64,000 nucleotides of DNA from a virus (taxonomy: Duplodnaviria; Caudoviricetes). Both the position numbers and the translations under genes were made by a program. The stretch's first letter is position 1; every line of letters begins with the position of its first letter. The notes beneath the pieces were generated by a model. It was given only the letters and a program-made list of their open reading frames with translations, did not search any database and was not told the DNA's origin. Where the stretch lies: positions 1-64,000 of IMG/VR virus record IMGVR_UViG_3300024058_000001; one strand, given 5' to 3'. Of this stretch, positions 536 through 40,485 are shown piece by piece.

Positions 536-2029
536 TTAGTCTAATGCCACCCAAACAGATTTTACTTGTGTGTAAAGTTCTATAGCTGCCTTACCAAGTT
601 CTCTACCAAACCCACTTTGTTTAAAACCTCCAAATGGAGAAGCTGCGTCAAATACATTATAACAATTAATCCAAATGGTTCCTGCTTTAAGCTTCTTAGC
701 CAATCTATGGGCTTTGCCTATGTCTCTTGTCCAAATACCTGCAGATAGTCCATATAGAGTATTGTTAGCCCTCTTAATTAAGTCATCCATATCTTTAAAA
801 GAAAACACAGTAACTACAGGGCCAAAAATTTCTTCCTTGGCAATAGTACAATTATCATCGTCACAATCAAAGATAGTAGGTTTAACAAAATATCCTTTAT
901 TCCTAGCAGGCCCTCCTCCTGTAATAAGAATAGATCCTTCCTTTTTACCAGTTTCAATAAGACTCAAAACCTTAAAATACTGTTCTTTGGATACCAAAGC
1001 ACCCATTTCAGTCTTTGGATCTAATGGATCACCTATAACTATCTTATCTGCCTTTTCTTTAAATTTATGTAAAAACTTATCTTTTATAGACTCTTGAACG
1101 TATAGACGTGAACCTGCACAACATACTTCTCCTTGATTAAAGAAAATACCTGTAATGGCTCCCTGTACCGCTGCGTCTATATCCGCATCATCAAATACAA
1201 TATTAGGTGCTTTGCCACCCAATTCTAAAGATACTTTCTTAAGATTGCTTCGAGCAGCCATTTCCATAATAAGTCTGCCTACTTCTGTAGATCCAGTAAA
1301 CGCTACTTTATCAACATCTTCATGCAATGCAATAGCTGCTCCTGCAACTGGGCCATAACCTGTCACAATGTTTACTACGCCTGCGGGAAGATGCGTCATA
1401 AATAACAATTCTGCAAAACGAAGTGCCGTTAAGGGAGTTTGTTCCGCTGGCTTTAAGACTACAGTACAACCTGCAGCCAATGCTGGCCCTAACTTCCATG
1501 CTAACATTAGCAACGGAAAATTCCAAGGAATAATCTGTCCTACAACCCCTACTGGTTCTCTAAGAGTATAGTTAAGAAATTCTCCATTAACAGGAATAGT
1601 TTCGCCTTCAATCTTATCTGCTAATCCTGCATAATACTCGAAGCATTCTACAGCTAGAAGAAGATCAACATTAGAAGTTTCACTAATAGGTTTTCCATTG
1701 TCCAAACTTTCTAGTTGAGCAAATTTTTCTTTGTCTTTGTCTAAAAGAACAGCAATACTATGAAGTATCCTACCTCTTTCTCTAGCTGTAAAGGTACTCC
1801 AAGGCCCATTGTCAAACGCTTCACGTGCTGCTGCAACGGCTGCATCCACGTCTACAGCCCCTGCTTCTGCCACATCAGTTAACTTTTCTTCCGTAGCAGG
1901 ATTAATTACATCAAACCGCCTTCCAAGATCAGCTTCAACCCACTCATTATTAATAAAAAGCTTCCCTGGCTTAATTTCATTTCTTACATCTGGCAATAAC
2001 GATTCATCTACTTTAAGTTTAGTACTCAT
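536..2029 (-). CDS. NAD(P)-dependent aldehyde dehydrogenase (ALDH1/2-like), intact
   Basis: PWNFP, FTGSTEVG, LELGGK (catalytic Glu), FFNQGEVCCAG (catalytic Cys), EEIFGP, GGFKQSGFGRE; ATG overlaps the polymerase TGA (ATGA). Confidence 0.97.
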   Translation of the reverse strand: MSTKLKVDESLLPDVRNEIKPGKLFINNEWVEADLGRRFDVINPATEEKLTDVAEAGAVDVDAAVAAAREAFDNGPWSTFTARERGRILHSIAVLLDKDKEKFAQLESLDNGKPISETSNVDLLLAVECFEYYAGLADKIEGETIPVNGEFLNYTLREPVGVVGQIIPWNFPLLMLAWKLGPALAAGCTVVLKPAEQTPLTALRFAELLFMTHLPAGVVNIVTGYGPVAGAAIALHEDVDKVAFTGSTEVGRLIMEMAARSNLKKVSLELGGKAPNIVFDDADIDAAVQGAITGIFFNQGEVCCAGSRLYVQESIKDKFLHKFKEKADKIVIGDPLDPKTEMGALVSKEQYFKVLSLIETGKKEGSILITGGGPARNKGYFVKPTIFDCDDDNCTIAKEEIFGPVVTVFSFKDMDDLIKRANNTLYGLSAGIWTRDIGKAHRLAKKLKAGTIWINCYNVFDAASPFGGFKQSGFGRELGKAAIELYTQVKSVWVALD

Positions 2030-4575
2030 TTAGGTATCTCCTCTAATTTTAGTTTTTTCATTTCTCCGAATCTAGTACCAGTTTTTATATCTACGACCAT
2101 CGAGACATTAATCTTAGGAATCGGTCTTTCCATTTCAGTTTTTACTAGCTTAATAACGATGTCCAGTTCTTCTTTCTTTACTTCTACGCATAATGAATCA
2201 TGAATAGTCAAAACAAGTCTAGATTCAAGAGCTTTATCATATAAAGCTTTCCTTACACGCAATGTAGCAATAGACAAAATATCATGCGCCCCGCCTTGAA
2301 TAGGACTATTAACAGCTTGTCGCTTCGCATGTTCTTTTACAGCAGGATTACCTGAATTAAAATCCTGGTACAATCTTCTTCGGCGACCTATCCAATTTAC
2401 TACTTCGCCTACTGATTCTGCTCGTCTTTCGGTATTTTCCATCCACCGCTTCATTCCAGGATATCTTGTAAAAATTGCATCAAATACGCCTTTGACTTGA
2501 TCTAAAGATAAATCTGTTTCTTTAGCTAAATTATCTTCACTCTTCCCATATATAACAGAATATACAATGGTTTTAGCCTTATCTCGTATTTCTTGAGTAA
2601 CTTCTTCATAAGGAATACCAAAACCAATAGATGCAATTTTCTTATGAATATCCAAATCTTTATTAGAAATATCAGTAATCATTGTCTCGTCGCCACACTC
2701 ATTGGCTAATAATCTAAATTCTATCTGCCCAAAATCTGCCTCTAATAAAACATATCCAGGTGAAGCAATAATACCATTTCTAACTTCTTTGGCTTTCTCT
2801 GAATCTCTTATAGGAATATTTTGAAGATTTGGATTAGAGCTAGATAAACGTCCTGTAACCGTTACATGTTGTTTATAACTTGTATGTAACTTACCGTCAC
2901 TTTTTACTAAATCAGGAATAGGAGCTATGTAAGTAGATAAAAATTTACGTAGTTTTCTATGCTCCTGAATTACCTTTGGAATTTCATGATGGTCAGCTAA
3001 CTTTTCTAGCACATCCTTATCGGTAGACGGTTTCTTAGGGCCTTTTGTTTTTCTATTCTTGTTAGAAACGTATTTAAGTATTGGTAACTTAAGAATATCA
3101 TAAAACAATACACGCATTTGGTCGGATGAATTGAAATTAACTGGCTTCTTTTGCTTATCTTTTAATTGATTAACTTCAGGAAAATCATTTAAAGCTTCTT
3201 CCAGTTCATCAATTTTATGCTTGTACTTAATAGCTAACTTTTTATAGTATTCAACATCTACTGATACACCAATTAGTTCCATATCCGCCAATGCAAAGGA
3301 TAAAGGTACCATAACTTTTTGCAATAGCACCAATAATCCCTGAGATTTTAATTTCGGGAATAAATTAATAAAAACTCTAAGTGTACAATCAGAATCTTTT
3401 CCAGCATACTTAGCTAATGAATTTAAAGGAGCTTTAGCATACGTATCAGAATCAACATCTGTTTCTTTAACTCCCAAAATCTCATACAATTCATTAGCAT
3501 AGTCTCCCATATCCGTGTACTTTAAGGATAAGTCGGTTAATCCGTGACCACCCTTATCATTCTCATCAAGCAAATAATGCGCTAACATGGTATCAAATAC
3601 AACTCCACGTAATCGTATGTTGTGTAATCTAAAAAACTGATAATCATACTTTATGTTCTGTCCTACCTTCTTTATATTTATATCTTCTAAAAGTTCTTTT
3701 AGTATTTTCCATATTACTTTTTCATCCGTCCTAGCCCAAAATGGTTCTATCCCAAATTTATAAAAAGGAATTACCCATGCTTCCCCAGGTTTCCAAGAAA
3801 ACTGAACCATAATAATCTTGCCTGTTAGATAATCTCCAACAGTTTCTGTATCCACAGAGACAACTTTAGCTTTTTTAACATGTTCAGCTAACAAACTAAT
3901 TTTGTGTAAATTGTCGCACATGATTACATCCGTACCTAACTGATTAGTTTCTCCTGTTTCCCCGATTTGTTTAATCAGCTTCAAATCTCTAACAAACTGT
4001 TCTGTTGAATCCATATCCTCGCCTCTACGAATAATAAACGAAGGATGCCACGTAGGAACACAATAGCATTGGTATTTGTCACTCCACATGGGTTTTCCTC
4101 TAAGTTTGGTAATGCCATCAGCATTCAACACTCGTTTTAACGCTACTGCGCCTAATAGCCCAATAACTTTAGGCTTCTGAGCATATATCTCTTGGTCTAG
4201 GTAATCGGCACATTTCTTAACTTCAGAAGGTTTAGGTGCTCGATTACTAGGTGGTCTACACTTTACAGAATTAGTAATATAGATATTTTTTCTATCAATA
4301 CCTGCTTCTTTAAGATACTTAGTTAAAAGCTTTCCTGATTCGCCAATAAAAGGAATCCCTTGTATAATTTCGTCTTTACCAGGAGCTTCCCCTATCAACA
4401 TTATGTCAGATTTCTCATTTCCATGACCCCATAAACATACTAGCTTTTTGTCTTCCGCCTCGCTAGTCTTATGCAAAGGACACTGCTTACATTCGGGATC
4501 TCTCCCATTAACATGTTTCTTTTTAGATTTTACAACCTTCTTTTTAGTTTTTGTAACTTTCTTTTTCTTTAGCAT
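2026..4575 (-). CDS. polA: Family A DNA polymerase with N-terminal family-4 uracil-DNA glycosylase domain and 3'-5' exonuclease
   Basis: UDG4: CKQC, GEAPG, PFIGESG, NSVKCRPP, HPS; Exo I DTET, Exo II NIKYD, Exo III YAGKD; Pol: TGRLSSSNPNLQN, motif A DFGQIEFR, motif B RDKAKTIVYSVIYG, motif C HDS. Confidence 0.95.
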   Translation of the reverse strand: MLKKKKVTKTKKKVVKSKKKHVNGRDPECKQCPLHKTSEAEDKKLVCLWGHGNEKSDIMLIGEAPGKDEIIQGIPFIGESGKLLTKYLKEAGIDRKNIYITNSVKCRPPSNRAPKPSEVKKCADYLDQEIYAQKPKVIGLLGAVALKRVLNADGITKLRGKPMWSDKYQCYCVPTWHPSFIIRRGEDMDSTEQFVRDLKLIKQIGETGETNQLGTDVIMCDNLHKISLLAEHVKKAKVVSVDTETVGDYLTGKIIMVQFSWKPGEAWVIPFYKFGIEPFWARTDEKVIWKILKELLEDINIKKVGQNIKYDYQFFRLHNIRLRGVVFDTMLAHYLLDENDKGGHGLTDLSLKYTDMGDYANELYEILGVKETDVDSDTYAKAPLNSLAKYAGKDSDCTLRVFINLFPKLKSQGLLVLLQKVMVPLSFALADMELIGVSVDVEYYKKLAIKYKHKIDELEEALNDFPEVNQLKDKQKKPVNFNSSDQMRVLFYDILKLPILKYVSNKNRKTKGPKKPSTDKDVLEKLADHHEIPKVIQEHRKLRKFLSTYIAPIPDLVKSDGKLHTSYKQHVTVTGRLSSSNPNLQNIPIRDSEKAKEVRNGIIASPGYVLLEADFGQIEFRLLANECGDETMITDISNKDLDIHKKIASIGFGIPYEEVTQEIRDKAKTIVYSVIYGKSEDNLAKETDLSLDQVKGVFDAIFTRYPGMKRWMENTERRAESVGEVVNWIGRRRRLYQDFNSGNPAVKEHAKRQAVNSPIQGGAHDILSIATLRVRKALYDKALESRLVLTIHDSLCVEVKKEELDIVIKLVKTEMERPIPKINVSMVVDIKTGTRFGEMKKLKLEEIPK

Positions 4576-15902: not shown

Positions 15903-16184
15903 TTATCCCCCTATGTTTGGATTTAACTTATATTTTTGTGCTATGTTCTTAACGCCTACATAGTCTTCTAGCTGTATTATATCCGTAGGAAATTCACCAT
16001 TTAGGCCGTAGTACATTACAATCGCTGTATTGATAGATAATAATTCCGATTTAGTTTTTGTAGATTGTGCATCCTCTCGCATTCTATTGGCAATCGGAAC
16101 ACTTATTGCTAAAAGTACTCCAATGATAGACACTACAATCGTAATCTCTGTTAAAGTAAATCCTTTATTGTCCTGTTTCTTCAT
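15903..16184 (-). CDS. Type IV pilin / GspG-like pseudopilin
   Basis: Class III signal KG-FTLTE + hydrophobic helix to ISVP, then EL..I..AI.MY....G.FP..I..L; start at ATG 16184 with GAGG RBS. Confidence 0.85.
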   Translation of the reverse strand: MKKQDNKGFTLTEITIVVSIIGVLLAISVPIANRMREDAQSTKTKSELLSINTAIVMYYGLNGEFPTDIIQLEDYVGVKNIAQKYKLNPNIGG

Positions 16185-16345
16185 CAAATTCTTCCTCTGG
16201 AATATCACTATTGTTAATTACAAGATATTCTCCTTTTCTTTTTTCTTCGTCTTCATGAGGGTAGAATGTCCAGGTATCTTTACAATCAGGACATTGTACA
16301 TCTTCTATTCCATCACCTTCTAATTCTCTACCGCAACAGATCATA

Positions 16346-16810
16346 CTAAACATTTCTGTACTCCCATATATTTGAAAAATCAATTACCTCATTTAGAACA
16401 AATTTTAACTGATTAATATCCATATTTATATTCATACTCATATCTTTCTCTAGCTTCTCAGGTAATGAATGTTTAAATAGTTTTAATAGTATTGTCATTC
16501 TATCTATTATTTTATCATAATCATGCAAAGCACCATCTGCTGCATTAGTAAATTTCCAACAAAAATTTATTAATGTACGTTTAGACAATTTTTTAAAATT
16601 GTCGTCGGTAGTCATTGTCATAATATGACCTAATGTATCTCGTTTCACGGCTATAGAATATTTTGTACATTTTATACAATTTATAAGGTGGGCTGTTACA
16701 AAATCAGAAAAAGTTTCGTTTATTGGTTTACCTATCCCTATACTAGTTTCCCACCATTCAGATAATGAATTTCTTACTAAAGTACAATTTTTAGATTCTG
16801 AATTATCCAT
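16346..16810 (-). CDS. Protein with N-terminal ZAS/zf-HC2-like motif
   Basis: C9-x31-HLINCIKC; spacing longer than canonical. Confidence 0.45.
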   Translation of the reverse strand: MDNSESKNCTLVRNSLSEWWETSIGIGKPINETFSDFVTAHLINCIKCTKYSIAVKRDTLGHIMTMTTDDNFKKLSKRTLINFCWKFTNAADGALHDYDKIIDRMTILLKLFKHSLPEKLEKDMSMNINMDINQLKFVLNEVIDFSNIWEYRNV

Positions 16811-17222
16811 TATTCTTTTTCCTTATCTCTTAGTTTTTTTACAATATTCTTTATCGGACACACACAATTAAAATCAGGTCTATCAGAAACGTCTTCAAAA
16901 CAAGCTTTGTAGTGTAACTCTGGTATTTCATTTAAAACTGCTACTTTTATATCAGTAACCATTTTAATCATTTTGTCCATTGTTTTATTTTCCTTTCACT
17001 ATAGTGCATTGTAATACTTCCATTTGGTTTATTACAGTTCCTTTTCCTTTGCATTCTAAACAAGTTTTTGTTACGTTCTTGTAATACTTTGTTACTTTAT
17101 CTCCTCGACATCTCGGACAAAGAATTTTAATTATTAATTTAATCATATGGTTTTAAATCTCCCAACTGTATAATATTTTATTAAATAAATAAATGTTTTC
17201 ATTGTTTTTTACCTCTATATAT

Positions 17223-17251
17223 AGAATAACATATTTGACTACTCTTGTCAA
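17223..17251 (-). promoter_or_regulatory. sigma70-type promoter
   Basis: TTGACA-17-TATTCT with TG extension. Confidence 0.7.
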
Positions 17252-17254
17252 TAG

Positions 17255-17620
17255 CACATCTAAAAAAATCTATAATAGTATATATAGTACTATAGCTATA
17301 CATAACTATAGTATTATTAATATAAGATATTCTTATATGTCTTACTGTAGGTATGTAATGTAGGATATTATTATAGTAGTTATTAACTACTTTAATAACG
17401 TAAATTATTAACTGAGTACACGTACCAGGGACAATACTATGGACAATACTGTGTGCCCTATAGTGTGCCCAGTAGCTATAGCTATAGATATAGCTATATA
17501 ATGTGCTAATATCGCTAAAAAGCCCTGTAAGGCCCTTTTGGTAGGGGTCAAAGGGGTAGACCCTACCAAGGGTACCCAAGCCCCACAGGGCGTGACTGTG
17601 TGCAAAGTCTATGTATGAGA
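17255..17620. other. Non-coding origin-like tract
   Basis: Very AT-rich TATA/TAG-rich block, direct repeats GGACAATACT x2, GTGTGCCC x2, TAGCTATA x3, then GC-rich inverted repeats. Confidence 0.45.
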
Positions 17621-17809
17621 AATGGCACTTTTGTGATAATCTAGTAATCTTCATGGCTCAGATTGCTCGTATTTAGTTTTTTGGTGAAATATGCTAGATA
17701 ATACTTATATGCACAGTTACCACACATAAATTCATTGTTGATCGCATACTTGCGATTACATTTTGTACAGTATACTCTTTTTCTTACTTTAGTTTTTCTT
17801 TTAAGTGTT

Positions 17810-20725
17810 TTAACCATTATCTTTATCCTCTAATTCTTTTATTGCTTCATTTAAAAGTTTCAAAGTCTTTTCTTGTATTTCTAATGGAACACAGTCATAA
17901 TCAGATAATACTTCTGTAAATATCAAAGATACTTTTTTAAATTTTTTGAGTACCTTAGTTATTACAGTATCTCTGTGTTTTAAGAAAATGTAATTTTTTT
18001 TCATTTATTTTACCACCTTTGTTCTAAGTGTCTCTCCGTTTAGTTCAAGTTCCCATTGTTTTAAAACTACCTTTGTTCCATCAGATTTTTTACCTGTTAA
18101 TACAACAATGCCTATTGTTGCAATTGGCCATTTAATTAGTTTTTTGTCAGTTGTGATTTCTACATCAACCAATATTTGTTTTCCAACTGGTTCATTTGTT
18201 ATTTGTCGATATCTCATGTTAGCCAATCCTTTCTACGACTTCTCTTGGATATTCATTATTACTAAAACGTTGTGTGCCGTAGCCGTCTAGCTTGCTATAA
18301 AGAATATCTGCAATGTAGTACAACCTATTCTTACGAATGTTAACTACAGATATTTGTACATCTGGCCATTTGTCAACTCCACTACCTACTGCTTCTATCG
18401 TTCTGATCCTATCTCTAATCTGGTCGTTAGTTATCATCTGGTTCACCTTTCCTTTCTAATTTAATGGTATCACATTTTTAAGAGTTTGTCAAGTGTTTAT
18501 CCAATTTTTTTTGTACATTACTAATTTGCAATTTATCTCTTTTGATATTTCTTTCTTCTTCTTCTTTAAAGAATTTTTGTAAATTGTGTATCTTTAACTG
18601 GTTTTCTTTTTTTGTTAATTTACGGCATTTTAAACTTGCCCCAATATAAATACAACCGTCGCCTCTTGATTCTATTACTAAATCATACTTAGTGGGATCG
18701 CCATGTATTGAAGCAATGTCTTTAATTATATTTTTACATTGTACACTAAATTTCCATATTTTAACTGTTTTAGTTTTTCTATTTAGCATGTTTACTGCGT
18801 AATAGCGCGACCCATGTATGTATCTGTATATTCCAACTACTCTAAATCTTTTTGTCCATTTGCGCTTGCGGTTTAACTTTAACAAGTTTCTAGTATTCAT
18901 TTTTTGTACCATCCTTTTTTAGATTTTGTTTTAGTCGTTACGTATGGTAACGTGCCCTACACCATACTTTTCAATGTAATACTTAAACCATCTGTTTGCA
19001 ATTGCTTGGTTGTGATATCTACCGATAAGTATTTCGTTACCAATAGTATCAATCTTAAAAATATCAAATGGTTTATTTTCAGTTTGTTGCATAGCCATGC
19101 TCCTTTCTTTCTATGTATTTTTCTTTTGCTAATTCAGAATATAAATCCATTATATCATCTCTATTATCAAATGGTTTGTTGTTTATATGCAAGTTAATTC
19201 CATTTAATATTTCTTGTCCTGCTTCTGTCTCATAAAAGTCATGGTCTTCATAGATTGTTTCGTCACCTTTTTTACATGCTGGACAATTAGGTGGTCGGTT
19301 TATACCTTGTATCGGCCCTGTGTATTTTGTACCACAATATTTATGTATCCAATGTTTCATCGTTTACCCCGTACTTTCTTCCATATTTTTCAAGATAAAT
19401 ATTGTCGCTATCTATAGAAGAATAATCATCTTCTATTACAGAACGTTCGTATTCAACTAGATCGTTCAATTCGTCTTCTTTACCAGTTTTTTTCACAGGG
19501 TTATTATTACTTTCAGTTATGTGGTAATAATCTGTTGTATTATCTTTATACTTCTGTTTTGTTTTCCATGTTCTCGTAGTTATGAATAATGCGTAAGCTC
19601 CTTCTGTAATTAGTGTTCGGAATCTTTCTTTAGCGTCATGTGAACACCCGAACGTTTCAGTTATTTGTGTTGAATCAATCATTAATCCCGATAAAAGATA
19701 TTGTCTTTTTGGATTCATAATTTATTTCCTGTCTGCCAATGTTATTGGCTTAATAGTTATTTTGTATTCAACTTCGTCTAATGTATCCGTTATACGACCC
19801 TCGATACCGTCAGCTAAATAATGTGTCTCACCTTCTTTAATTTGGCCATTAGTGTTTTTTAATAAAATACGAAGTAATTCTAAACAATGTGTCATGGCTA
19901 TATCCTTTCTGTTTGTACTTTGTTTAACAAGCTTGGTGATACACGCCATTTCGTAAAACCATCTACTGCAAGTAGTATAATGTTTTTTTGTCCGATCTTA
20001 GTAACCTTACCTTCAATCTTACCACGCTTACTATTAAACCAAACCTTATCGCCAATATGAAATTTGCTTTTAGTTTCAATGTTTCTAATATCTTGTAAAT
20101 CTTTCAATCGGTCAAAGATTTGGTTGTGAGCTTGTTTCAAAAAATCGTAATCAGCTTCTTCTAAAATTGTACTAAGATGGTTTTGTAGTGTCATTATTTG
20201 TCACCTTTCTTTTTAATACCGTAGTTACGATTAAATGTTCGATCCATTAGATAGTTATTAACCGCTTGATACAAAACTTCGGTATCGTTCATTTTTTGTA
20301 AATCTGTCCATTCCTGTAATGTTACATCATTTACTGTAGTTCGTTCTATCGGTAATTTAACAATATACTTTTTTTGTTTAACTGTTAGCTGTCTCATTTT
20401 GTTTATCTCCTAAATAGTCTAATAGACGCTTTTGATATTTATGTGGAACATCGTCTAATATTAATTGTTTAAGTTCGTTATTTTGGCATGTACAATGAAA
20501 AGGTGTTTTTAGGTATTCTGGTGCTAAATCACGATTCAACCCTCTAACTTTTCCAGACGCTACCATAAACGCTATTTCTTCAGCGCGATCTTGAACCGCA
20601 CCCATGCACCAAAGGTTATCATCTGGAAAACTTTTTGCTCTCTCCCCACGTTGCCATGATGTACTTTGTAATTCATCAGCTATCTTTTCTAAATATCTAA
20701 TAACGGAACAGTTCTGAATATTCAT
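17810..20725 (-). other. Cluster of about ten short hypothetical early genes (17810-18004, 18005-18226, 18219-18446, 18478-18912, 19079-19360, 19341-19718, 19722-19895, 19898-20194, 20194-20397, 20378-20725)
   Basis: Abutting/overlapping minus-strand ORFs with RBS; no recognisable families. Confidence 0.55.
18464..18492 (-). promoter_or_regulatory. sigma70-type promoter
   Basis: TTGACA-17-TACCAT with TG extension. Confidence 0.7.
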
Positions 20726-20726
20726 A

Positions 20727-20957
20727 TTAGATACCTAGCCTTTTCTCTGTTTGCACAAACTCTACAATGTGCTTACACTTCTTTTGTCTAAACACATAAT
20801 GTGGACATGTACATACATAAGTATAATGGTTACGATTCCGTACTCTAACCTTTGCTACTGTGTACATCAGCCCTTCTGTAGTTTGCGATCTGACTTTCGC
20901 GTACTTACGCGCTCCGAACCGTTCACCTTTATATCGTCTTGCTATTACTATAATCAT
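20727..20957 (-). CDS. SWIM zinc-finger protein
   Basis: CTCP..VFR...CKH. Confidence 0.75.
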   Translation of the reverse strand: MIIVIARRYKGERFGARKYAKVRSQTTEGLMYTVAKVRVRNRNHYTYVCTCPHYVFRQKKCKHIVEFVQTEKRLGI

Positions 20958-20986
20958 TTTCGTCTCCTTGGATATGTATTTTTTTA

Positions 20987-21265
20987 CTACCGTTTATAAT
21001 TTTTGCATGAACCATCATAGGGGTAGAGTTTAGTTGCTTTTTTATGTAATCTAAGAATTTCATCCCTTACCCCTTGAACACCAGCAGACAACTCGGATAA
21101 ATGTTCAATGCCTAGTGTTAAACCTTCTTTGCTAGGCACGTATTTATTGCCTATTTTAGAAAACAATCTAACATCTACATAATGTTTATTTTTGTCTTCT
21201 AGCAAGCTTATCCGTATTTCTTCGTGTTCATCCTTTTGTAACGTGTGTATCACTGTAGTTTTCAT
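20987..21265 (-). CDS. PC4/p15-like ssDNA-binding protein
   Basis: EEIRISL, YVDVR.F, PSKEGLTL. Confidence 0.75.
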   Translation of the reverse strand: MKTTVIHTLQKDEHEEIRISLLEDKNKHYVDVRLFSKIGNKYVPSKEGLTLGIEHLSELSAGVQGVRDEILRLHKKATKLYPYDGSCKNYKR

Positions 21266-21288
21266 TTAATTTTCCTCCGTTTAGTTTT

Positions 21289-21465
21289 TTATTTTTTAGT
21301 ATTAGCCGTATGAATTGCCACATTAAACATTCTGATGTTATGTTCCTCTTCGGCGCAATCCGTACAAACTTTTAAATGATTCTCTATTAAATTGTCTAAC
21401 GAAGTATCGTTTAATTCTCTAAATAACCATGCCACCATCCTTTTTTGTATTTGTTTACAGTTCAT
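21289..21465 (-). CDS. Stand-alone zinc anti-sigma (ZAS/zf-HC2) protein, 58 aa
   Basis: MNC-x26-HLKVCTDC; start at ATG 21465 with GGAG RBS. Confidence 0.75.
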   Translation of the reverse strand: MNCKQIQKRMVAWLFRELNDTSLDNLIENHLKVCTDCAEEEHNIRMFNVAIHTANTKK

Positions 21466-21694
21466 TGTTACTTCTCCTTTCAACTTCTTTTTCCCAAAAC
21501 TTATTATCAAAACCACTTGGAAGTTTGTTTGGGTATGCCATGCTAAGAATCCCATTAAGTTCTCTAGCTTTCCATTCTTCTTTCTTACAAATTACACATG
21601 TCTTTAGGTGCTCCTCAAGCTGGATACTTAATTTTTCCTCAAGTTCACCGTCCAGCCACCGATTAATATTGTATTGTGCATCTTTACAGTTCAT
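21455..21694 (-). CDS. Stand-alone zinc anti-sigma (ZAS/zf-HC2) protein, 79 aa
   Basis: MNC...WLDGEL...LEEHLKTCVIC...LPSGF, RsiW/RsrA-like N-domain, no transmembrane segment. Confidence 0.85.
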   Translation of the reverse strand: MNCKDAQYNINRWLDGELEEKLSIQLEEHLKTCVICKKEEWKARELNGILSMAYPNKLPSGFDNKFWEKEVERRSNNEL

Positions 21695-21733
21695 TTCGTT
21701 TACCTCGCTTTGTTTTATTTTCCTGCTACTTAT

Positions 21734-21762
21734 ACTTTACCAGATAATTGGGCGGTTGTCAA
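21734..21762 (-). promoter_or_regulatory. sigma70-type promoter driving the ZAS-ZAS-PC4-SWIM operon
   Basis: TTGACA-17-TAAAGT with TG extension. Confidence 0.7.
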
Positions 21763-22103
21763 GTCTTTTTTGCTTTTTTAGATACTGTGGCCCAACTGTC
21801 TCTTTGTGTGATATTTCCTTTAACCCATTTTTTAGGTACAACACGATTTAATATTTCGACAAACGGCAACGTCCAACTGTCACCTATCTCTATATGATCT
21901 AATGTACAGGTTTGCTTTGTAACTTTGGTTACTACATAAAACGCTTTCCCGTCTGCAACGTGGTCGGAAACATACCGCCCTACTAAAGTTTTATTTTTCT
22001 TAGCGTCTTCGTCGGCTTGTAGCATAACTAATATTTTTATTTTATTTTCTTCTACCCGATTATCGATTATGTCCTGTGTTGATGTTTCTTTTGATTTACT
22101 CAT
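21759..22103 (-). CDS. Hypothetical protein, paralog of 22323-22685
   Basis: Shared AKK.KTLVGR...Y.VTK.....CTL. Confidence 0.6.
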   Translation of the reverse strand: MSKSKETSTQDIIDNRVEENKIKILVMLQADEDAKKNKTLVGRYVSDHVADGKAFYVVTKVTKQTCTLDHIEIGDSWTLPFVEILNRVVPKKWVKGNITQRDSWATVSKKAKKT

Positions 22104-22305
22104 GGCAAACCCCTTGATTTATTAGATTTTTGGCTGTACGACTAAACCAACCTTGTAATGTCCACGCTAGACTAGTATCAATTAAATACTGCCATGCTTC
22201 TATTGTCTTTTGTTCGTCGTTACATTCTACAAAACCTTCTGCAATTCCTACCGCTTCGTAATTATCCATTTTTTTGTTCCCCTTTTGTTTTTTATTTGTC
22301 TTCAT
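22096..22305 (-). CDS. Small conserved phage protein
   Basis: AWQYLIDT..AW.LQGW..RTA..LI..G pattern recurrent in phages. Confidence 0.6.
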   Translation of the reverse strand: MKTNKKQKGNKKMDNYEAVGIAEGFVECNDEQKTIEAWQYLIDTSLAWTLQGWFSRTAKNLINQGVCHE

Positions 22306-22311
22306 ACTTAT

Positions 22312-22340
22312 AGTGTACCCTGTTACTTAGGATTTGTCAA
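22312..22340 (-). promoter_or_regulatory. sigma70-type promoter
   Basis: TTGACA-17-TACACT. Confidence 0.7.
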
Positions 22341-22685
22341 GTGTGCCTTCGCTTTCTTAAATATTTGTTCTAGTTCATGGTTTCGTTGTAATTCCTCACA
22401 TCTAACATTGTATTCTACCATGCTTCTAGGCATTTTATTGTGATGTTCTTTAATAGCTAATGATTCCTGCATATGCTCAATCTTTACAAACTTTAACGTG
22501 CACATATCATTTTTAAGTTTTGTTACGGTATAGTACGAGAAATTTCCTTTACTGCATACTTGAAAAGATCGCCCTACTAAAGTTTTTTCCTTTTTTGCAT
22601 TCCAATTTGTGTTTATCATATTCATTAAATTTCTGTTGCTTTCGGTATTCGGTATTTCTTTTGGCCATTCGTTTTTTGTTTTCAT
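22323..22685 (-). CDS. Hypothetical protein, paralog of 21759-22103
   Basis: Shared KTLVGR motif. Confidence 0.6.
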   Translation of the reverse strand: MKTKNEWPKEIPNTESNRNLMNMINTNWNAKKEKTLVGRSFQVCSKGNFSYYTVTKLKNDMCTLKFVKIEHMQESLAIKEHHNKMPRSMVEYNVRCEELQRNHELEQIFKKAKAHLTNPK

Positions 22686-22968
22686 TTTTTTTGTACCATC
22701 CTTTTTTTATTTTTCCTCATTATCATTATATACGGTCTTATTTTTTTCATCGTATATAACTAGATTTTTGAATCCCTTACGCTTTAGTTCTTGCAATTTC
22801 TTGAACACTGTTAAAAGACTTCTAGATTTTCTTTTGTGTGTGTATCGCTTTCCTAACCTAGTAGATCCTTTTATCGTGTATCTTTTACTCCACTTGCTAA
22901 ATACATTCATTATATGTTCCTTTCCAGAGTACAGGGGCGAGTAAACTACCTCGCCCCGTTTACCCCAC

Positions 22969-23937
22969 CTACGCCTTAGCAATCGTTACTAATTGACTGA
23001 ATGCTTCCTCTTTAAGATTCTTACCACTACCAAAACCTGCAGAGTACAATCGGTTACTGGCATCACCTTTTGTAGTACGTTCGTAATCTACATACTCGGT
23101 TACGCCGTTGTAAAGGGCCCAAGCACTGCCCCTTACACCTGTTACATCGTTACCACGACCCGACACAAACAAACGCTTAATAGTATCCTGTATGTTACGT
23201 GTACGTGTTTTAATCTCGCTATCTTTTTTATCCTGAACGTTTAGCAACGTATCGAGAAACGAATCGACCGCAAGACCGTTCATTTGTTTACGTGCCAAAA
23301 CTTCGCTTTGCTCTTTAAACGCCATAAAGTACGCTTTGCTATCTGCTAAAATTTCCTGTGCATCGGTTACCTTGTCACGGAAGTTTTGCGTATGTTTCAC
23401 TTTTAAAACCTTTTCGCCGTCCATACCTAATAAACTGGCGTTTAAGGTATTCCAGCAGACCACGCGCACAGGAGTTTTGAACATCTGCAGTTTTAGACTT
23501 CCATCGTGTGACGTGCTAAGTAATAGGTACGATCTGATTTCGTCGCGCCCTGCTACCTCGAAAGTATAAGGTAAACGTGCTAGTATCCAAACAATACGCC
23601 CACCCTTTAAAGATCCAGCAACCTCATATTTTGCTTGTCCTGTACCAGTTACTTCGTCAAAAATTTTAAAGCAATCGGTATTTTGAATCGGAACGTACCG
23701 ATCTTTAGAAACCTGTAAAACTTCCTTTGTGTCTTCACGTACAATTGCTTTGTACCCCTCTATAATATCGCCATCGGCATTTAGTATAGGTTGCTCGACA
23801 ACCTTCCAGCCTAGCCCACTTGCAATAATCGCTTCACTAGCGGTTAAAACTTCCTCGCCTACGTAATGCCCGATCTTGTGCCAAGGTGTTTCTCCTGCAT
23901 AAAACAAACTATCGTTTTTTGTTATTTCGTGTGACAT
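22969..23937 (-). CDS. DUF932/DUF945 family phage/plasmid protein
   Basis: PWH..G, Y.P.QN...F, AGSL.GG..VW, SHDGS, TPVRVVCWNT, W..YN.VTE..D. Confidence 0.88.
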   Translation of the reverse strand: MSHEITKNDSLFYAGETPWHKIGHYVGEEVLTASEAIIASGLGWKVVEQPILNADGDIIEGYKAIVREDTKEVLQVSKDRYVPIQNTDCFKIFDEVTGTGQAKYEVAGSLKGGRIVWILARLPYTFEVAGRDEIRSYLLLSTSHDGSLKLQMFKTPVRVVCWNTLNASLLGMDGEKVLKVKHTQNFRDKVTDAQEILADSKAYFMAFKEQSEVLARKQMNGLAVDSFLDTLLNVQDKKDSEIKTRTRNIQDTIKRLFVSGRGNDVTGVRGSAWALYNGVTEYVDYERTTKGDASNRLYSAGFGSGKNLKEEAFSQLVTIAKA

Positions 23938-23996
23938 TTTTTGGTTCCCCTTTTTGGTTTTGGATTTTTGTTTTTTGTGTTCGTCTTCATACTCAT

Positions 23997-24025
23997 ATGG
24001 TACCCGATTCGATTCGCTTTGTCAA
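23997..24025 (-). promoter_or_regulatory. sigma70-type promoter
   Basis: TTGACA-17-TACCAT. Confidence 0.7.
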
Positions 24026-24038
24026 GACCACCCCCAAT

Positions 24039-24913
24039 CTTTTTTGTGTTATTTTTATACATTTTACCTAACCCTTTTCTATGTAAAACGATACGTAGGA
24101 TCAAATTTTTCATCGTTGTATGCATTACGGCATTTACCGCTTTCTTTATCAAGTGATTAATATTCAGTCCCACAAGGATCACCCCAACTGTTGTAACATG
24201 CTTTTGTTTTTTTTGCTTTTTTATACTTTTTCCAGAAGTCTTTATTTTTCTTTTTGAAATGACCACCCGTAGATTTTTTATTCTTAGATATTGGCCTTCC
24301 GAAAATATCTGTTTTGGTTTTGGTGCTTCTGGTGCTCCATTGGCTACGCTTTACGCTATTTGTCTCTGTGCCCGTATTGGTTTCAGTGGAATGTTCTGCT
24401 TTAATCTTATTTTCAGCATTTACTTCATTTACTAGACCAATTTGATTATCTACAACCTTTTCGTTGCGGTCAAAAGTTACTAAAAGACGCTCTATTTGAA
24501 TTGTACTTTTGGCACTTAATAGATTGATTTGTTTCTCTATGGCATCTTCGTCGTCTTTATAAATGTCGTGGACAATTGCATCAATTTCATTACTGTTGAA
24601 GATCACAATACCATCAGTCAGTTTAAGGAAAATCCTGTCGTTCAAGTCTTCCAAAACAATACCCTCGACTATCGCGCCGTTTCTTAGCATCAATCGGTCA
24701 ATATCTTTCCAATTGGATTTTAAGAAACGAATTTCTTTGGCTTGTGGTAAAGCATTGCTAAAGTTTATGCTAAAACCCATTATGCTTATTGCTATGAGTA
24801 CTACAGTGATTATTAGTCTACGCATCTGTTTTTTTGAACCCCCTTTTTTGTGTTATTTTTATACATGTTATCTAACCCTTTTCCACGTAAACTGATACGT
24901 AGGGTCGAATTTT
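24039..24913. repeat. Imperfect ~71-bp direct repeat (24039-24109 and 24843-24913) flanking gene 24157-24825
   Basis: About 63/71 identity by manual alignment; one copy overlaps the SprT gene 3' end. Confidence 0.85.
24157..24825 (-). CDS. Exported protein, host-like (D.L.L.NG..VEG.V beta domain)
   Basis: Signal peptide; DRLMLRNGAIVEGIV...I.L....G.V.F...EI..I. Confidence 0.65.
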   Translation of the reverse strand: MRRLIITVVLIAISIMGFSINFSNALPQAKEIRFLKSNWKDIDRLMLRNGAIVEGIVLEDLNDRIFLKLTDGIVIFNSNEIDAIVHDIYKDDEDAIEKQINLLSAKSTIQIERLLVTFDRNEKVVDNQIGLVNEVNAENKIKAEHSTETNTGTETNSVKRSQWSTRSTKTKTDIFGRPISKNKKSTGGHFKKKNKDFWKKYKKAKKTKACYNSWGDPCGTEY

Positions 24914-25338
24914 CCCCCACTGTACTTATTACAGCATGAAGCGCATGCCATTTTATGCGCCCGTCTACTTAATCTAAACCTTTCGCGCTCATGACCATTT
25001 ACGCATTTACCTATGTAGTTTGCTTTAGGTGTATTGGCATCGTTTTCATTATAACACCTCTTACCATCCCCGCCCATTGAAATAAATTTATCGCGCCATA
25101 CCTTATCATGATTATGCCCTATTCCTGCAACTGCGTGTGCGATTTCGTGTAGAATTGTATTACGTACTCGATCTACTTCGTTTAGTCGTACAAGATGCTG
25201 CGATAACTTAATCACATTAATACCAAAATAACACGTACCAAAAGCACGTTTACTATTGCTTAGTCTTATTTCCCAATTGTGCAATCCGTATTCATTTTTT
25301 AGATTTTCTGCTAAGTGTAAAGCTTCTGTAATGTCCAT
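24868..25338 (-). CDS. SprT-like zinc metalloprotease
   Basis: G.C...I.LS, TILHEIAHA, H...W. Confidence 0.88.
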   Translation of the reverse strand: MDITEALHLAENLKNEYGLHNWEIRLSNSKRAFGTCYFGINVIKLSQHLVRLNEVDRVRNTILHEIAHAVAGIGHNHDKVWRDKFISMGGDGKRCYNENDANTPKANYIGKCVNGHERERFRLSRRAHKMACASCCNKYSGGKFDPTYQFTWKRVR

Positions 25339-25363
25339 TTTTAAATCCTTTCTTTTCAGATTT

Positions 25364-25558
25364 TTAACTATATGATCGTTGTACTAATCTATGTATCTGC
25401 TCGAATTCATTTTTATATTGTTCGCAACTATCACACTTTGCTATATGCCGAAATAAAGCATATGCTAATGCATACCGTGTAAAAGTACACGTTACTAAAT
25501 CTTCTATGCATTCGCGTGTTATATCGCATCCTATGTTTACTTTCCTTTTTTGTTTCAT
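25364..25558 (-). CDS. Stand-alone zinc anti-sigma (ZAS/zf-HC2)-like protein, 64 aa
   Basis: C11-x26-HIAKCDSC followed by amphipathic helix; first gene after a perfect promoter. Confidence 0.65.
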   Translation of the reverse strand: MKQKRKVNIGCDITRECIEDLVTCTFTRYALAYALFRHIAKCDSCEQYKNEFEQIHRLVQRSYS

Positions 25559-25587: not shown

Positions 25588-25616
25588 ATTATACCCTAAC
25601 TGGTTTTCGCTGTCAA
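25588..25616 (-). promoter_or_regulatory. Perfect-consensus sigma70 promoter
   Basis: TTGACA-17-TATAAT. Confidence 0.85.
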
Positions 25617-27264: not shown

Positions 27265-28554
27265 TTATAATATTTTACAATTGTAATTGGCATCTACTAA
27301 TTTACGATGCATACAATCCCATATAAAAACTTCTCTTTTTGATCCTAGTATATACGCGATTGCTTTTTGCTTATCATTTGTCTTTAGAAATACTTTGCAT
27401 GCTCTTGTAGTACGTGATTCGGAATGTTCACCTTGCACCCAATATCTTTTAAACTCGTATGTTTGCATATGCTCACCTATCCCTTTCTTTATTTAACATT
27501 ACTAATGTACTACATATATTATCGAACATACTACATTTGTTGTCAGCTTTGCATGTACTACAAGTCTTTATATGCTGCTGTAACGTTTGACTTAAAAGCT
27601 TTGGCGCGTTAATCGTTCCGTGTATAATCATTTATTTTACTCCTTTTCTTTTTTTAAGTTCGGCACGATATATAGACGCTTCGTCAGAATAATAACTATC
27701 GTCTATCCTTGCTTGTACACATGCTATACAATCATTGATTGCACTGTATAGATCGGCATAAGACATCTTTTCGGCTTGCTTAGCTTTCGCTTCCCAGTCT
27801 ATTTGTTTTGTCATATGTTCACCTTATCCCTTTTTTTTATTTACTTCTTACAATTATCATTATAATCATACAGATCAAACACTAGCTTGCAATGATCGAA
27901 TGCATCTAATCTAGGTTTATCCATATTACTAAATCGTTCGATATGCTCTTTCGATAAATCTTGACCACAACGTGCACAGCTAAAAGATGTTTTATCGCAT
28001 GACGATAATACTATAACGTCATTGTATCCCTTATCATAACCATGTTTATATACCATATCTATTTGTTCCTGTGTATACATCATGGGTGCTTTTTTAATCT
28101 TTGTAATGGTATTTGTTTTTACATTTCTTTTTAAATCGCTTTTAGCTTGTGCTACTTTCTCGACCTCTATCGTAAACGTACGATAGTTAAATGCTTTATT
28201 ACTCTTTTTAGCCATCATAGAATAATCTAACGTTGCATTTGACCTAGTTAAATAATCTTCGATCTGTCCTATCTTTTCTGCCTGTGCCTTAAAGTCTTTG
28301 CGTGTTAGCATGTTTCACCTTATCCCTTTTTAGATTTATAGTTTATTATCTTCGTATGCATCAATCGCATTATCAAACAAGCTTTCAATCGTCCCATACG
28401 TTAAGCCTACGGTAAAAACATCATCGTAAGGTACATCGCGTACATCTTCGCTATTGAATCTTATCCATTCGCCATTGACGCTTACTACCGTGTCAAGCGT
28501 TCCATCGTCTTCTAGCCTTACTTCATAGTCCGTACCGTCTTTTGTGATCTTCAT
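27265..28554 (-). other. Four short hypothetical early genes (27265-27468, 27632-27814, 27841-28311, 28336-28554)
   Basis: Each preceded by a similar AAAGGG..AGGTGA RBS. Confidence 0.55.
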
Positions 28555-37553: not shown

Positions 37554-38438
37554 TTAGGACAAATTATCTTGTACATGAATTTCTCCTCCATGTCCTTGTA
37601 CTTCATAGTATAAATAGTCTACTCTTACTCTATGATATTCCTTGCCCCATTTGTTTGATTCGCTTACTTCCATGAAGCGATTAAAGTTCTCTTTCGCTTC
37701 ATACACCCTAAATTGCGAAGGTGGATGTGCGCTAAAAAAGTGTATAAAATCAGGTAACTTGTCTATTGGTATTGTGGCCAATTTCTCATTATATTTTATT
37801 ACTGCTTCTGCTGGATAACCTAGCTTTGACAAATAATTCATTGCTCTACCATCTGCCTCTACTTCGGCACTTTTACTAAATTGTTGCTTAATATAAGGAG
37901 AGCTTACTTCAAAACCTGATAACATACCTGATGCTGCACCTGCAGCAGATCCTAAATATCCACCTGTTGCACTAAGTCCAATTTTTGCAATTTTGTTTAT
38001 TTTAAACTTTTTTCCCTTTTTACCTGATTGATAACGTAATGCAGTAGTATGTCCTATTTCATGAGCTAACACTGCAGCAAGCTCTGCTTTTGAATCTATA
38101 AAAGAAAATAGCCCTGTTGATATATAGATATAACCACCAGGAAAAGCAAATGCTTCTACTCTTGGTTCTTTTATTACAAAGAATTGCCAAGGTAGATGAG
38201 GGCGTTCACTTATCCTAGCGATATCTTTGCCCACTTTGGTTACATAATCATTAATTATTTCATCTTCAATAAATACGACATCTTTTTTAAATTGTTTACT
38301 TTGATCTACACCTGACCTAATTTCTTCTAAATCATACATATTAAGAGGAATATCATCACTAATAATACGCATTCTTTTATCTGTACATCCTAATAATAAA
38401 AAACTTACAATTAACATTACTAATAAAAGCATTCGCAT
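37554..38438 (-). CDS. M48 family zinc metalloprotease lipoprotein (BepA/YfgC-like)
   Basis: Lipobox LLLGC, AFAFPGGYI, ELAAVLAHEIGH, E.EAD, SAHP. Confidence 0.9.
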   Translation of the reverse strand: MRMLLLVMLIVSFLLLGCTDKRMRIISDDIPLNMYDLEEIRSGVDQSKQFKKDVVFIEDEIINDYVTKVGKDIARISERPHLPWQFFVIKEPRVEAFAFPGGYIYISTGLFSFIDSKAELAAVLAHEIGHTTALRYQSGKKGKKFKINKIAKIGLSATGGYLGSAAGAASGMLSGFEVSSPYIKQQFSKSAEVEADGRAMNYLSKLGYPAEAVIKYNEKLATIPIDKLPDFIHFFSAHPPSQFRVYEAKENFNRFMEVSESNKWGKEYHRVRVDYLYYEVQGHGGEIHVQDNLS

Positions 38439-38967: not shown

Positions 38968-39507
38968 TCATACCTTATCCAAGCAACATTTCTTGTATTT
39001 TTTACCACTGCCACAAATACAAGGATCATTGCGTCCTATTCTTAATACATTCTTTATTGTTCCGCATATAGCATGATCAAAATAAAGAATACCATTTGTA
39101 TGATCGATCTCATGCTGTATAACAACTGCTTCTATATCTTCTACCATAGATTTATGTTCTTCTAATTCTTCGTCTTGGTATGTAAAAGTAACATGTTTAT
39201 ATCTATCTGTTTGCTTTGACTTCTTAGGAAAACTCAAACATCCTTCTTTAGAAAATACAAATGGTTCTTCTCTGCTTACTATCTGTGCATTACATGCAAA
39301 CAGCCATTGACCTGAAGGAAACTTTACTAAAAATGCTTGTCTATGTATCCCAATTTGTGGTGCAGATACTCCATATGCTCCTTCTTTAGGAAACATCCCC
39401 AGTAATGCTTCTTTTAAGTCTGTTGCTTGCTCCTTGGTTTCCACTGGTTTGCAAGTCTGTCGTAAGAATTCTTCGCTGTAAAGTGGGAACTGCTTTAGTT
39501 TTATCAC
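38968..39507 (-). CDS. def: Peptide deformylase with C-terminal SEC-C motif
   Basis: GVSAPQIG, EGCLS, QHEIDH; GRNDPCICGSGKKYKKCC. Confidence 0.93.
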   Translation of the reverse strand: MIKLKQFPLYSEEFLRQTCKPVETKEQATDLKEALLGMFPKEGAYGVSAPQIGIHRQAFLVKFPSGQWLFACNAQIVSREEPFVFSKEGCLSFPKKSKQTDRYKHVTFTYQDEELEEHKSMVEDIEAVVIQHEIDHTNGILYFDHAICGTIKNVLRIGRNDPCICGSGKKYKKCCLDKV

Positions 39508-39930: not shown

Positions 39931-40485
39931 CTATGAATTAGGGTCAATCTCACATTTGCCTTTTTTATGATCCTCTTCAAACTTCTTATTGAATTTATCA
40001 AACAGCACTCTTTGGTCACGTATTTGTATGCACACATTTTTTATTACTGCATCTAAATCAATAAAATCTTCATCTGGAGGAGGTTTTGGTATTGAAGTTG
40101 CTACAAATACAATATCATTACCTTTACTTTTACGTGGTACATTCCACGCATCAAATTCTTTCATTCCTGGCAATATCTTGTAGAGTATCTTGCGTATATC
40201 TTCTAAGCTTAGATTAGCCATACCAAACTTATCCCATTTAATATCCTGTTTTAAGCATGCATCTAACCAGCCAATAACACGCTCTAAACCTTGAGGAAAT
40301 GCATAAGGAGACTGCCTAACAGCAGTCCATGCTAATGCCCCTGTAATATCTTTTCTAAAGGTAATACGTTTTTCTTTCCATGTACTGTTTTGTTGATTAG
40401 GTACATCTTTTAACACAGCTTTTATCTCCTTAAGTAAACTATCAGGATTCTTTATGTTTACAATTGGATATTTTTTTCTATTCAT
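39931..40485 (-). CDS. Hypothetical protein
   Basis: 184-aa ORF directly after promoter. Confidence 0.6.
   Translation of the reverse strand: MNRKKYPIVNIKNPDSLLKEIKAVLKDVPNQQNSTWKEKRITFRKDITGALAWTAVRQSPYAFPQGLERVIGWLDACLKQDIKWDKFGMANLSLEDIRKILYKILPGMKEFDAWNVPRKSKGNDIVFVATSIPKPPPDEDFIDLDAVIKNVCIQIRDQRVLFDKFNKKFEEDHKKGKCEIDPNS

Follow-up and report, generated by a model that had tools for sequence, protein, structure and literature searches.

Pairs of an ECF sigma factor and its anti-sigma factor belong to the most common stress switches of bacteria. Zinc anti-sigma (ZAS) proteins are described here from a phage in which no ECF sigma factor was found. The phage concerned has a complete genome of 104,771 bp (~105 kb) with ~34% G+C, and the window analysed here is one whole stretch of 64,000 nucleotides of its DNA. 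A preliminary description of this window had claimed four stand-alone ZAS proteins from four cysteine-histidine motifs, and all four motifs were indeed recovered from the minus strand, at the positions and with the spacing given below. As a count of ZAS proteins, four is however too many, since family scores, profiles and placement in the ESM Atlas leave two candidates firm, one probable and one weak. Judged from sequence, the phage carries two certain and two to three possible membrane-less copies of the zinc anti-sigma domain:

21455..21694, minus strand: ZAS-A, 79 aa, complete four-helix CHCC zinc anti-sigma domain without a membrane segment
21289..21465, minus strand: ZAS-B, 58 aa, paralogue of ZAS-A with helices 1-3 only
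25364..25558, minus strand: candidate C, 64 aa, probable divergent ZAS-like three-helix protein, C11-x26-H38-x3-C42-x2-C45
16346..16810, minus strand: candidate D, 154 aa, N-terminal ~55 residues possibly ZAS-like, C9-x31-H41
27473..27631, minus strand: ORF E, 52 aa, L-x2-H-I-x2-C-x2-C motif only

On the evidence of their sequences, ZAS-A and ZAS-B are class I zinc anti-sigma domains of the zf-HC2 family, scoring 34.3 and 26.5 bits, respectively, against the Pfam model PF13490 with its cut-off of 22.2 bits, a curated threshold not reached by C, D or E. The putative zinc ligands are spaced C3-x25-H29-x3-C33-x2-C36 in ZAS-A and C3-x26-H30 and then H-x3-C-x2-C in ZAS-B, such that ZAS-A (x25), ZAS-B (x26) and candidate C (x26) all combine H-x3-C-x2-C with a Cys/His 23-26 residues upstream. 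The two genes are arranged in tandem with an 11-nt overlap of the ZAS-B ATG with the 3' end of ZAS-A, an AGGAG ribosome-binding site precedes this ATG, and the products share 38% identity (E 2e-9). The AF2 model of ZAS-A, the one ZAS candidate modelled, has a pLDDT of 91.9 and predicts a three-helix bundle plus a fourth helix (residues 3-14, 20-32, 34-53 and 62-77). When this model was used in Foldseek, the top ten matches were all ECF anti-sigma domains, albeit, with such a small query, at weak E-values of no better than 0.2. ZAS-A retains the LDGEL and PSxxFExxFWxKV helix motifs, and a nearly invariant helix-1 Asp is substituted in ZAS-B. As had been claimed, both lack a membrane or sensor part: the Kyte-Doolittle maximum in a 19-residue window is 0.18 for ZAS-A, the one of the four candidates scanned in this way, and for B, C and D the lack of a membrane segment was judged by sequence instead of a hydropathy score.

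What the phage copies lack becomes apparent from their cellular relatives. Among 1.84 billion representatives, 121 relatives of ZAS-A were found, most of them 140-170 aa long with N-termini matching ZAS-A over its full length, and a membrane-like segment is present in 99 of the 122 sequences scanned (ZAS-A and the 121 relatives). In an alignment of 30 sequences comprising ZAS-A, ZAS-B and 28 relatives, C3, H29, C33 and C36 are invariant. Compared with membrane anti-sigma factors of the RsiW kind, ZAS-A spans their entire cytoplasmic domain of four helices and stops at the start of their membrane helix, while ZAS-B stops after helix 3, and neither has the single membrane helix with extracytoplasmic tail of the RsiW type. 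In agreement with the normal pairing of ZAS proteins with an ECF sigma factor, such a gene adjoins every cellular relative with readable neighbours, and these sigma factors score best against SigW models. The adjacent, co-transcribed ECF sigma gene is absent from the phage. The closest cellular relatives are at most 45% identical, with loci of 43-49% G+C as compared to ~34% in the phage, and neither a donor nor a target can be singled out.

The profile of the 30-sequence alignment matches RsiW, RsrA, DdvA, RslA and ChrR. The closest likeness is to RsiW, the anti-sigma factor of Bacillus subtilis SigW, whose construct crystallised with SigW (PDB 5WUQ) shares the CHCC site and the four-helix cytoplasmic domain with ZAS-A, is matched by the profile at E 2.8e-10 over residues 1-77 of both, and is the top Foldseek match (probability 0.99). 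RsiW is, however, a membrane protein encoded with its own sigma factor and removed by regulated proteolysis, whereas ZAS-A has neither a membrane or outer part nor a sigma gene beside it. The Streptomyces SigR anti-sigma factor RsrA (PDB 5FRF; profile E 9.3e-7) is soluble and small and has the same motif, but it is a cellular redox sensor whose gene adjoins sigR, and its model TIGR03988 is matched only weakly by A and B (24.1 against an equivalog cut-off of 62.5 bits). AsiA of T4 and ORF67 of phage G1 (PDB 4G6D) are likewise small and phage-encoded and act by binding to a sigma factor of the host, as is proposed here for the ZAS proteins, but their folds are unrelated to ZAS and their target is the primary sigma factor. 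The N-terminal domain of DdvA from Myxococcus xanthus, solved with DdvS (PDB 8RLZ), is a CHCC domain of three helices and ~70 residues that binds regions 2 and 4 of its own ECF sigma factor, and in isolation such a ~70-residue domain tightly binds both sigma domains (PMC11506125). In contrast to the ZAS domain described here, which is on the phage side, DdvA belongs to the host and carries a large periplasmic TPR-CHAT sensor.

Candidates C and D gave no zf-HC2 match in Pfam even at E ≤ 10. A family profile built from 122 cellular relatives, when compared with all 1466 ORFs in the six frames of the phage genome, ranked ZAS-A (5e-27), ZAS-B (2.2e-12), C (4.1e-4), ORF E (1.5e-3) and D (0.01) ahead of the next ORF at 0.68, the match of ORF E covering only 17 aligned columns. 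The hhalign probabilities are 99.7 for A, 98.1 for B, 89.5 for C (54 columns, first Cys aligned) and 81.5 for D (44 columns), whereas nine further small, Cys-rich proteins encoded by this phage reached 0.4-20. In the ESM Atlas, candidate C falls among zf-HC2 clusters (0.94; TM 0.70-0.83) and is probably a divergent member of the ZAS family; candidate D, not placed among these clusters, with a loop 6 residues longer and a C-terminal 100 residues without assigned function, is a possible one. ORF E has too few residues ahead of its motif for helix 1 and the first ligand. Across the ~31,300 residues, H-x3-C-x2-C occurs six times, whereas shuffling within proteins gave 0.27 occurrences (at most 3 in 2000 shuffles), an enrichment of ~20-fold, with one of the six occurrences being the zinc ribbon of a SprT-like protein.

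The block in which the ZAS genes sit consists of small genes under the control of a sigma70-type promoter family, and strong promoters indeed precede ZAS-A, overlapped by ZAS-B, and candidate C:

21734..21762, minus strand: sigma70-type promoter TTGACA-17-TAAAGT with TG just upstream, directly upstream of ZAS-A
25588..25616, minus strand: perfect sigma70 promoter TTGACA-17-TATAAT, 29 nt before candidate C
20987..21265, minus strand: 92-aa protein of PC4-like single-stranded-DNA-binding fold, third gene of the same apparent operon as ZAS-A and ZAS-B

This promoter family comprises 12 minus-strand sites concentrated at 17-41 kb, with cTTGACAa, a 17-nt spacer and TAnnnT in common, and candidate D is the third gene downstream of its site at 17251. 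The PC4-like gene follows ZAS-B with a GGAGG site of its own and scores 24.4 bits against the Pfam PC4 cut-off of 25 (E 2e-5). The first gene of the block encodes a homologue of the Thoeris inhibitor Tad5 (143.5 bits). The window contains no match to Rfam, and tRNAs are absent.

The claimed absence of a sigma factor from the 64-kb window was borne out, as Sigma70_r2, r4, r4_2 and TIGR02937 were all negative there. Extended to the rest of the genome, this holds for ECF sigma factors: profile searches across 104,771 bp detected no full sigma of the Sigma70_r2/TIGR02937 type, and a profile of the relatives' own ECF sigma factors had no match. It does not hold for region 4, which makes up one protein outside the window:

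87622-88011: 129-aa Sigma70_r4-only protein, just upstream of the large terminase gene, 34 bits against a cut-off of 24.1

Every top Foldseek match of its model is sigma A region 4, PDB 4G6D with G1 ORF67 being among the entries returned, and the protein is ~70% identical in a syntenic phage contig. The phage has region 4 only and not the combination of regions 2 and 4 of a cognate sigma factor. The 192-aa gene upstream was considered as a source of region 2 and rejected, since it resembles only DUF3310, and that weakly.

ZAS-A and ZAS-B are phage versions of the zinc anti-sigma domain found on the cytoplasmic side of RsiW-like ECF anti-sigma factors, from which the membrane anchor has been shed along with the extracytoplasmic part; candidate C probably and D possibly belong with them. 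In the reading that we favour, to which an even chance is given, these sensor-less proteins are probably made early and would trap ECF sigma factors of the host, be it one or several. Transcription would be by the host sigma70 polymerase from promoters in the small accessory gene block, and the proteins would bind region 2 and region 4 of the sigma factor. Since a membrane and extracytoplasmic part is missing, the host would be unable to switch these proteins off by the usual regulated proteolysis, and an envelope-stress, phage-tolerance or defence-island regulon would stay silent during infection. The phage ZAS proteins would probably silence a host stress or defence response. Release of core RNA polymerase for the phage promoters, as suggested in the preliminary description, would be a further hypothetical gain. 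Against this reading stand the low identity and higher G+C of the cellular relatives, the slender host lead, the lack of close phage relatives with ZAS genes, and the chance that a phage protein with region 4 is the actual partner.

The 129-aa protein makes a phage-internal partner possible, in which case the ZAS proteins would keep it inactive until late in infection and thereby serve as a timer of late transcription or of packaging. Its region-4 score, its model and its retention in the syntenic contig speak for such a role, as do the match to PDB 3HUG, in which the partner of the anti-sigma domain is a lone region-4 domain, and the restriction of ZAS-B to the three-helix bundle. However, the likeness of the 129-aa protein is to region 4 in primary and sporulation sigma factors and not to that of ECF ones, and its gene lies 66 kb away from the ZAS genes in another module, in a position typical of a small terminase subunit. 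Furthermore, ZAS-A retains the conserved helix 4, which in sigma/anti-sigma crystal structures contacts sigma region 2 and would hence be of no use against a partner with region 4 only. Use of ECF-type promoters by the phage was considered and rejected, as GAAC-N16-17-CGT was found 5 times against 5.06 expected, and this absence of enrichment counts against the timer as well, which we regard as quite unlikely.

A different use of the zinc three-helix fold, directed at region 4 of the host primary sigma factor in an AsiA-like switch from -35-dependent promoters or at a non-sigma target, is an unlikely alternative. In its favour, B, C, D and E are all short proteins that have diverged, with B devoid of the nearly invariant helix-1 Asp. 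It is also consistent with the distribution of promoters, since those of the block have perfect -35 boxes, none of which occurs in intergenic DNA at 41-92 kb except at 54795 (gene junction, poor -10, 2/6 matches), and the site ahead of the terminase gene resembles an extended -10; moreover, sigma A region 4 is a target of other phages, as in G1 ORF67. ZAS-A nevertheless matches canonical ECF partners across all four helices, and to our knowledge no ZAS domain binds a primary sigma factor. Hardly probable, finally, is that the ZAS genes are host-derived passengers with little or no role in infection and that the weaker candidates C, D and E are small proteins that bind zinc but have no relation to ZAS. 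The genome being a singleton without close relatives that have these genes, the lack of ZAS genes in elements with the neighbouring DUF932 gene and the scores of C, D and E below family thresholds would fit such an origin. However, ribosome-binding sites of good quality, a promoter and the overlap of stop and start in ZAS-A and ZAS-B, retention of all four ligands and helix motifs in ZAS-A at phage-like G+C, the apparently adaptive exact loss of the membrane part and the excess of H-x3-C-x2-C over shuffles argue against it.

Searches for phage relatives point to the isolation of this genome. A word-index search with ZAS-A returned only itself, no relative of ZAS-A or of the neighbouring DUF932 gene was found in IMG/VR, and no ZAS gene lies near the DUF932 gene of more distant elements. 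Comparison of the 20-26 kb region with GenBank phages by blastn produced trivial matches only, tblastn of ZAS-A, ZAS-B and one short relative against 50,697 GenBank phage records gave no credible match at the low sensitivity that applies to a 35-residue domain, and PHROG had no family for ZAS-A or ZAS-B at E < 0.02. As no close phage relative with ZAS genes was found, it cannot be judged whether selection conserves them. As a host pointer, RecA had no match among genomes, and ZAS-A was matched in only 2 of 201 sampled Bdellovibrionota genomes (E ≤ 1e-3). The sole host lead, again Bdellovibrionota, comes from a single gene, the phage aldehyde dehydrogenase, which has 73% and 69% identity to two Bdellovibrionota MAGs as compared to at most 60% elsewhere; the lead is weak, since the flanks of these bacterial genes have 54% G+C and are not phage-like.

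Regulons of the required kind exist in bacteria: the ECF/ZAS pair DdvS-DdvA controls a CBASS-CRISPR defence island (PMC11506125), and a preprint links the ECF sigma factor SigX to a response of Bacillus subtilis that provides phage tolerance (bioRxiv 10.1101/2021.02.16.428622). Our literature search for phage-encoded ZAS proteins found none, and the words sigma, anti-sigma and ECF are absent from a November 2026 review of phage countermeasures (PMC13728456). As a tentative and rather doubtful extension, A, B, probably C and perhaps D and E could form a small arsenal, each tuned to a different host ECF sigma factor, and represent a new class of counter-defence that would act by keeping defence islands under sigma control, or the regulons of the envelope and of phage tolerance, switched off and not by direct inhibition of a defence protein. 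The idea is cheap to test, as ZAS proteins are small and soluble and the binding assays of the family are standard, and such domains could be used as orthogonal ECF inhibitors in synthetic circuits. If true, an uncleavable phage anti-sigma factor would be a simple way to hold such regulons off and would extend phage counter-defence by a layer of regulation.

All four motifs from which a preliminary description had named four zinc anti-sigma (ZAS) proteins were found at their positions and with the spacing given there, but only two of the four ORFs, ZAS-A and ZAS-B, exceed the zf-HC2 cut-off of 22.2 bits, while candidates C and D gave no match even at E<=10. The zf-HC2 scan of the whole phage genome likewise retrieved A and B only. 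The ORFs concerned were further compared with a family profile of 122 cellular N-terminal domains, with filters off and every six-frame phage ORF scanned.

ZAS-related ORFs, with family-profile E-values
21455-21694, minus strand: ZAS-A, 79 aa, zf-HC2 34.3 bits, E 5e-27
21289-21465, minus strand: ZAS-B, 58 aa, zf-HC2 26.5 bits, E 2.2e-12
25364-25558, minus strand: candidate C, E 4.1e-4
27473-27631, minus strand: ORF E, 52 aa, absent from the preliminary description, E 1.5e-3
16346-16810, minus strand: candidate D, E 0.01
Next best phage ORF: E 0.68

ZAS-A and ZAS-B are paralogues (38% identity, E 2e-9), each preceded by a Shine-Dalgarno site, with the ATG of ZAS-B located 11 nt inside the 3' end of ZAS-A. 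A HMMER search of 1.84 billion representative proteins revealed 121 relatives of ZAS-A at E<=1e-3, most of them 140-170 aa long, whose N-termini align with the whole length of A. In a 30-sequence alignment the zinc ligands C3, H29, C33 and C36 are invariant, and ZAS-A retains the helix-1 LDGEL and helix-4 PSxxFExxFWxKV signatures, stopping just short of the point at which its relatives continue into a hydrophobic helix and a conserved tail; ZAS-B stops after helix 3. A membrane-like segment is present in 99 of the 122 scanned sequences (A and its 121 relatives) and absent from A, for which the earlier claim that transmembrane and sensor domains are lacking thus holds. The profile of the alignment matched the cytoplasmic domain of RsiW, crystallised with SigW, over residues 1-77 (E 2.8e-10), followed by RsrA, DdvA, RslA and ChrR. 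The AlphaFold model of ZAS-A has four helices (pLDDT 91.9), and ECF anti-sigma domains make up all of its best ten Foldseek matches, with E-values that are weak for such a short chain. Therefore, by its motifs, relatives, profile and fold matches and the missing membrane segment, ZAS-A is a complete class-I zinc anti-sigma domain minus the membrane and sensor parts. Of the 122 proteins counted (that of the phage and 121 relatives), 37 show two to four tandem H-x3-C-x2-C motifs in chains of about 300-400 aa; these metagenomic multi-domain anti-sigma proteins (cellular relatives P0003, P0008-P0010, P0012 and others) are also those against which ZAS-B scores best.

The H-x3-C-x2-C motif occurs six times in the phage proteome, as compared to 0.27 in shuffles. 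With hhalign, C reached 89.5% over 54 columns with the first Cys aligned, D 81.5% across 44 columns with six residues inserted, and E 89.1%, though across no more than 17 columns. For nine further small Cys-rich proteins of the phage the values were 0.4-20%. The ESM Atlas groups C with zf-HC2 clusters on both features (0.94) and structure (TM 0.70-0.83), and its support for D is weak. C is hence graded a probable divergent ZAS member and D a possible one, while E shares with ZAS the motif only.

In cells, an ECF sigma gene adjoins every relative with readable neighbours (loci L007-L009, L010, L015 and L016), and these sigmas score highest against SigW-type models. Next after the sigma/anti-sigma pair comes a Metal_resist/LTXXQ gene in L007-L010, with RND efflux genes in addition in L007-L009. 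As to the phage, the absence of an ECF sigma from the window extends to the complete genome: Sigma70_r2 was not detected at E<=1, a profile made from the sigmas of the relatives gave at best a 30-residue fragment (E 0.012), and ECF-type promoter motifs are no more frequent than expected (5 vs 5.06). A single gene carries region 4 only.

87622-88011 of the complete genome (15622-16011 of L014, a part of it), outside the window, minus strand: sigma-region-4-only protein, 129 aa, Sigma70_r4 34 bits vs cut-off 24.1

This protein is similar to region 4 of the primary and sporulation sigmas, all its top Foldseek matches being sigma A region 4 (about 30% identity). Its gene precedes that of the large terminase by 110 nt, and a related syntenic 62-kb contig has it at the same position, with about 70% protein identity. 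It is not an ECF sigma; it may serve as a late activator, mimic region 4 or form the small terminase subunit.

The virus record, whose first 64 kb form the window, is complete, with 104,771 bp, direct terminal repeats and about 34% G+C. Its minus strand carries 68 of the 75 ORFs that are 150 aa or longer.

Gene blocks, in the direction of transcription
104-88 kb: recombination and nuclease block (RecA, SbcC-like, metallophosphatase and AAA ATPase genes)
88-41 kb: packaging and structural genes (large terminase, portal)
40.5-17 kb: small-gene block, about 70 genes
17-0 kb: replication block (DnaB, PolA, RNA ligase, aldehyde dehydrogenase)

The family A DNA polymerase (2026-4575, minus strand) carries an N-terminally fused uracil-DNA-glycosylase-superfamily domain (residues 50-198). 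A 101-aa protein (15903-16208, minus strand) has a prepilin-type N-terminal methylation motif (PF07963, 27.1 bits); in L018, a distant element, a comparable small N_methyl gene is found close to the DUF932 homologue. The small-gene block, in which duplication seems common, includes a peptide deformylase bearing a SEC-C motif at its C-terminus (38968-39507, minus strand) and an M48 zinc peptidase (37554-38438, minus strand). Just upstream of ZAS-A is a paralogue pair (21759-22103 and 22323-22685, minus strand; 36% identity over 50 residues, E 8e-9), and two genes downstream of the ZAS operon a 76-aa ORF (20727-20957, minus strand) shows, in translation only, a SWIM-like C-x-C...C-x-H pattern.

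Twelve promoter-like sites on the minus strand have in common cTTGACAa, a spacer of exactly 17 nt and TAnnnT, often with TG or GG immediately ahead of the -10 box. The 17-41 kb stretch accounts for ten of the twelve.

-35 starts, minus strand
In the window: 17251, 18492, 21762, 22340, 24025, 25616, 26567, 27256, 33106, 40534
Outside the window: genome 92873, 104060

In agreement with the earlier placing of ZAS genes close behind sigma70 promoters, putative site 21762 directly precedes ZAS-A and site 25616, a perfect consensus, lies 29 nt before C; site 22340 comes after the second gene of the paralogue pair (22323-22685). Promoter-like sites at 15-30 kb are no more numerous than in shuffles (62 vs 60.5); the case for promoters rests on the common extended pattern and intergenic positions. 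In the 41-92 kb structural block, intergenic DNA showed no family site bar a weak one at 54795, and therefore late genes may have a different mode of transcription. Behind site 40534, the first gene of the small-gene block (39931-40485, minus strand) encodes a protein homologous to the Thoeris inhibitor Tad5 (PF25190, 143.5 bits, E 4.6e-42), which co-purifies with ThsB (PMC13728456). The promoter family and this homologue heading the block would put the ZAS genes in the company of accessory genes that are directed at the host and transcribed by its polymerase.

Concerning the host, the promoters and Shine-Dalgarno sites appear consistent with a bacterium that uses canonical sigma70 promoters, and not with Bacteroidota-type promoters. 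The full-length aldehyde dehydrogenase (536-2029, minus strand; Pfam E 6.5e-184) is closest to two Bdellovibrionota MAGs (73% and 69% identity; elsewhere 60% or less), and is a possible host lead or possibly an auxiliary metabolic gene. ZAS-A matches were found in only 2 of 201 sampled Bdellovibrionota genomes.

A proposed survey of phages for orphan ZAS genes yielded no credible match by tblastn among GenBank phages, no PHROGs family matches ZAS, and the literature searched, a recent review included (PMC13728456), contained no phage-encoded ZAS protein. The target of the phage ZAS proteins might be the primary sigma or something else, the fold having been repurposed, which is unlikely. Somewhat less likely still, they act as a timer on the phage's own 129-aa region-4 protein, which may be a partner because anti-sigma domains can bind isolated region 4, as in PDB 3HUG, one of the matches, but is not an ECF sigma. 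That they are passenger genes is the least probable.

The best-supported reading, to which we give about an even chance, is that anti-sigma domains made by the phage, and beyond removal by host proteolysis, would trap one or more host ECF sigmas. An isolated 70-residue CHCC domain binds both sigma domains tightly, and an ECF sigma/ZAS pair gates a CBASS-CRISPR island (PMC11506125). A preprint on SigX and phage tolerance (bioRxiv 10.1101/2021.02.16.428622) suggests a second reason why a phage may want ECF sigmas trapped.
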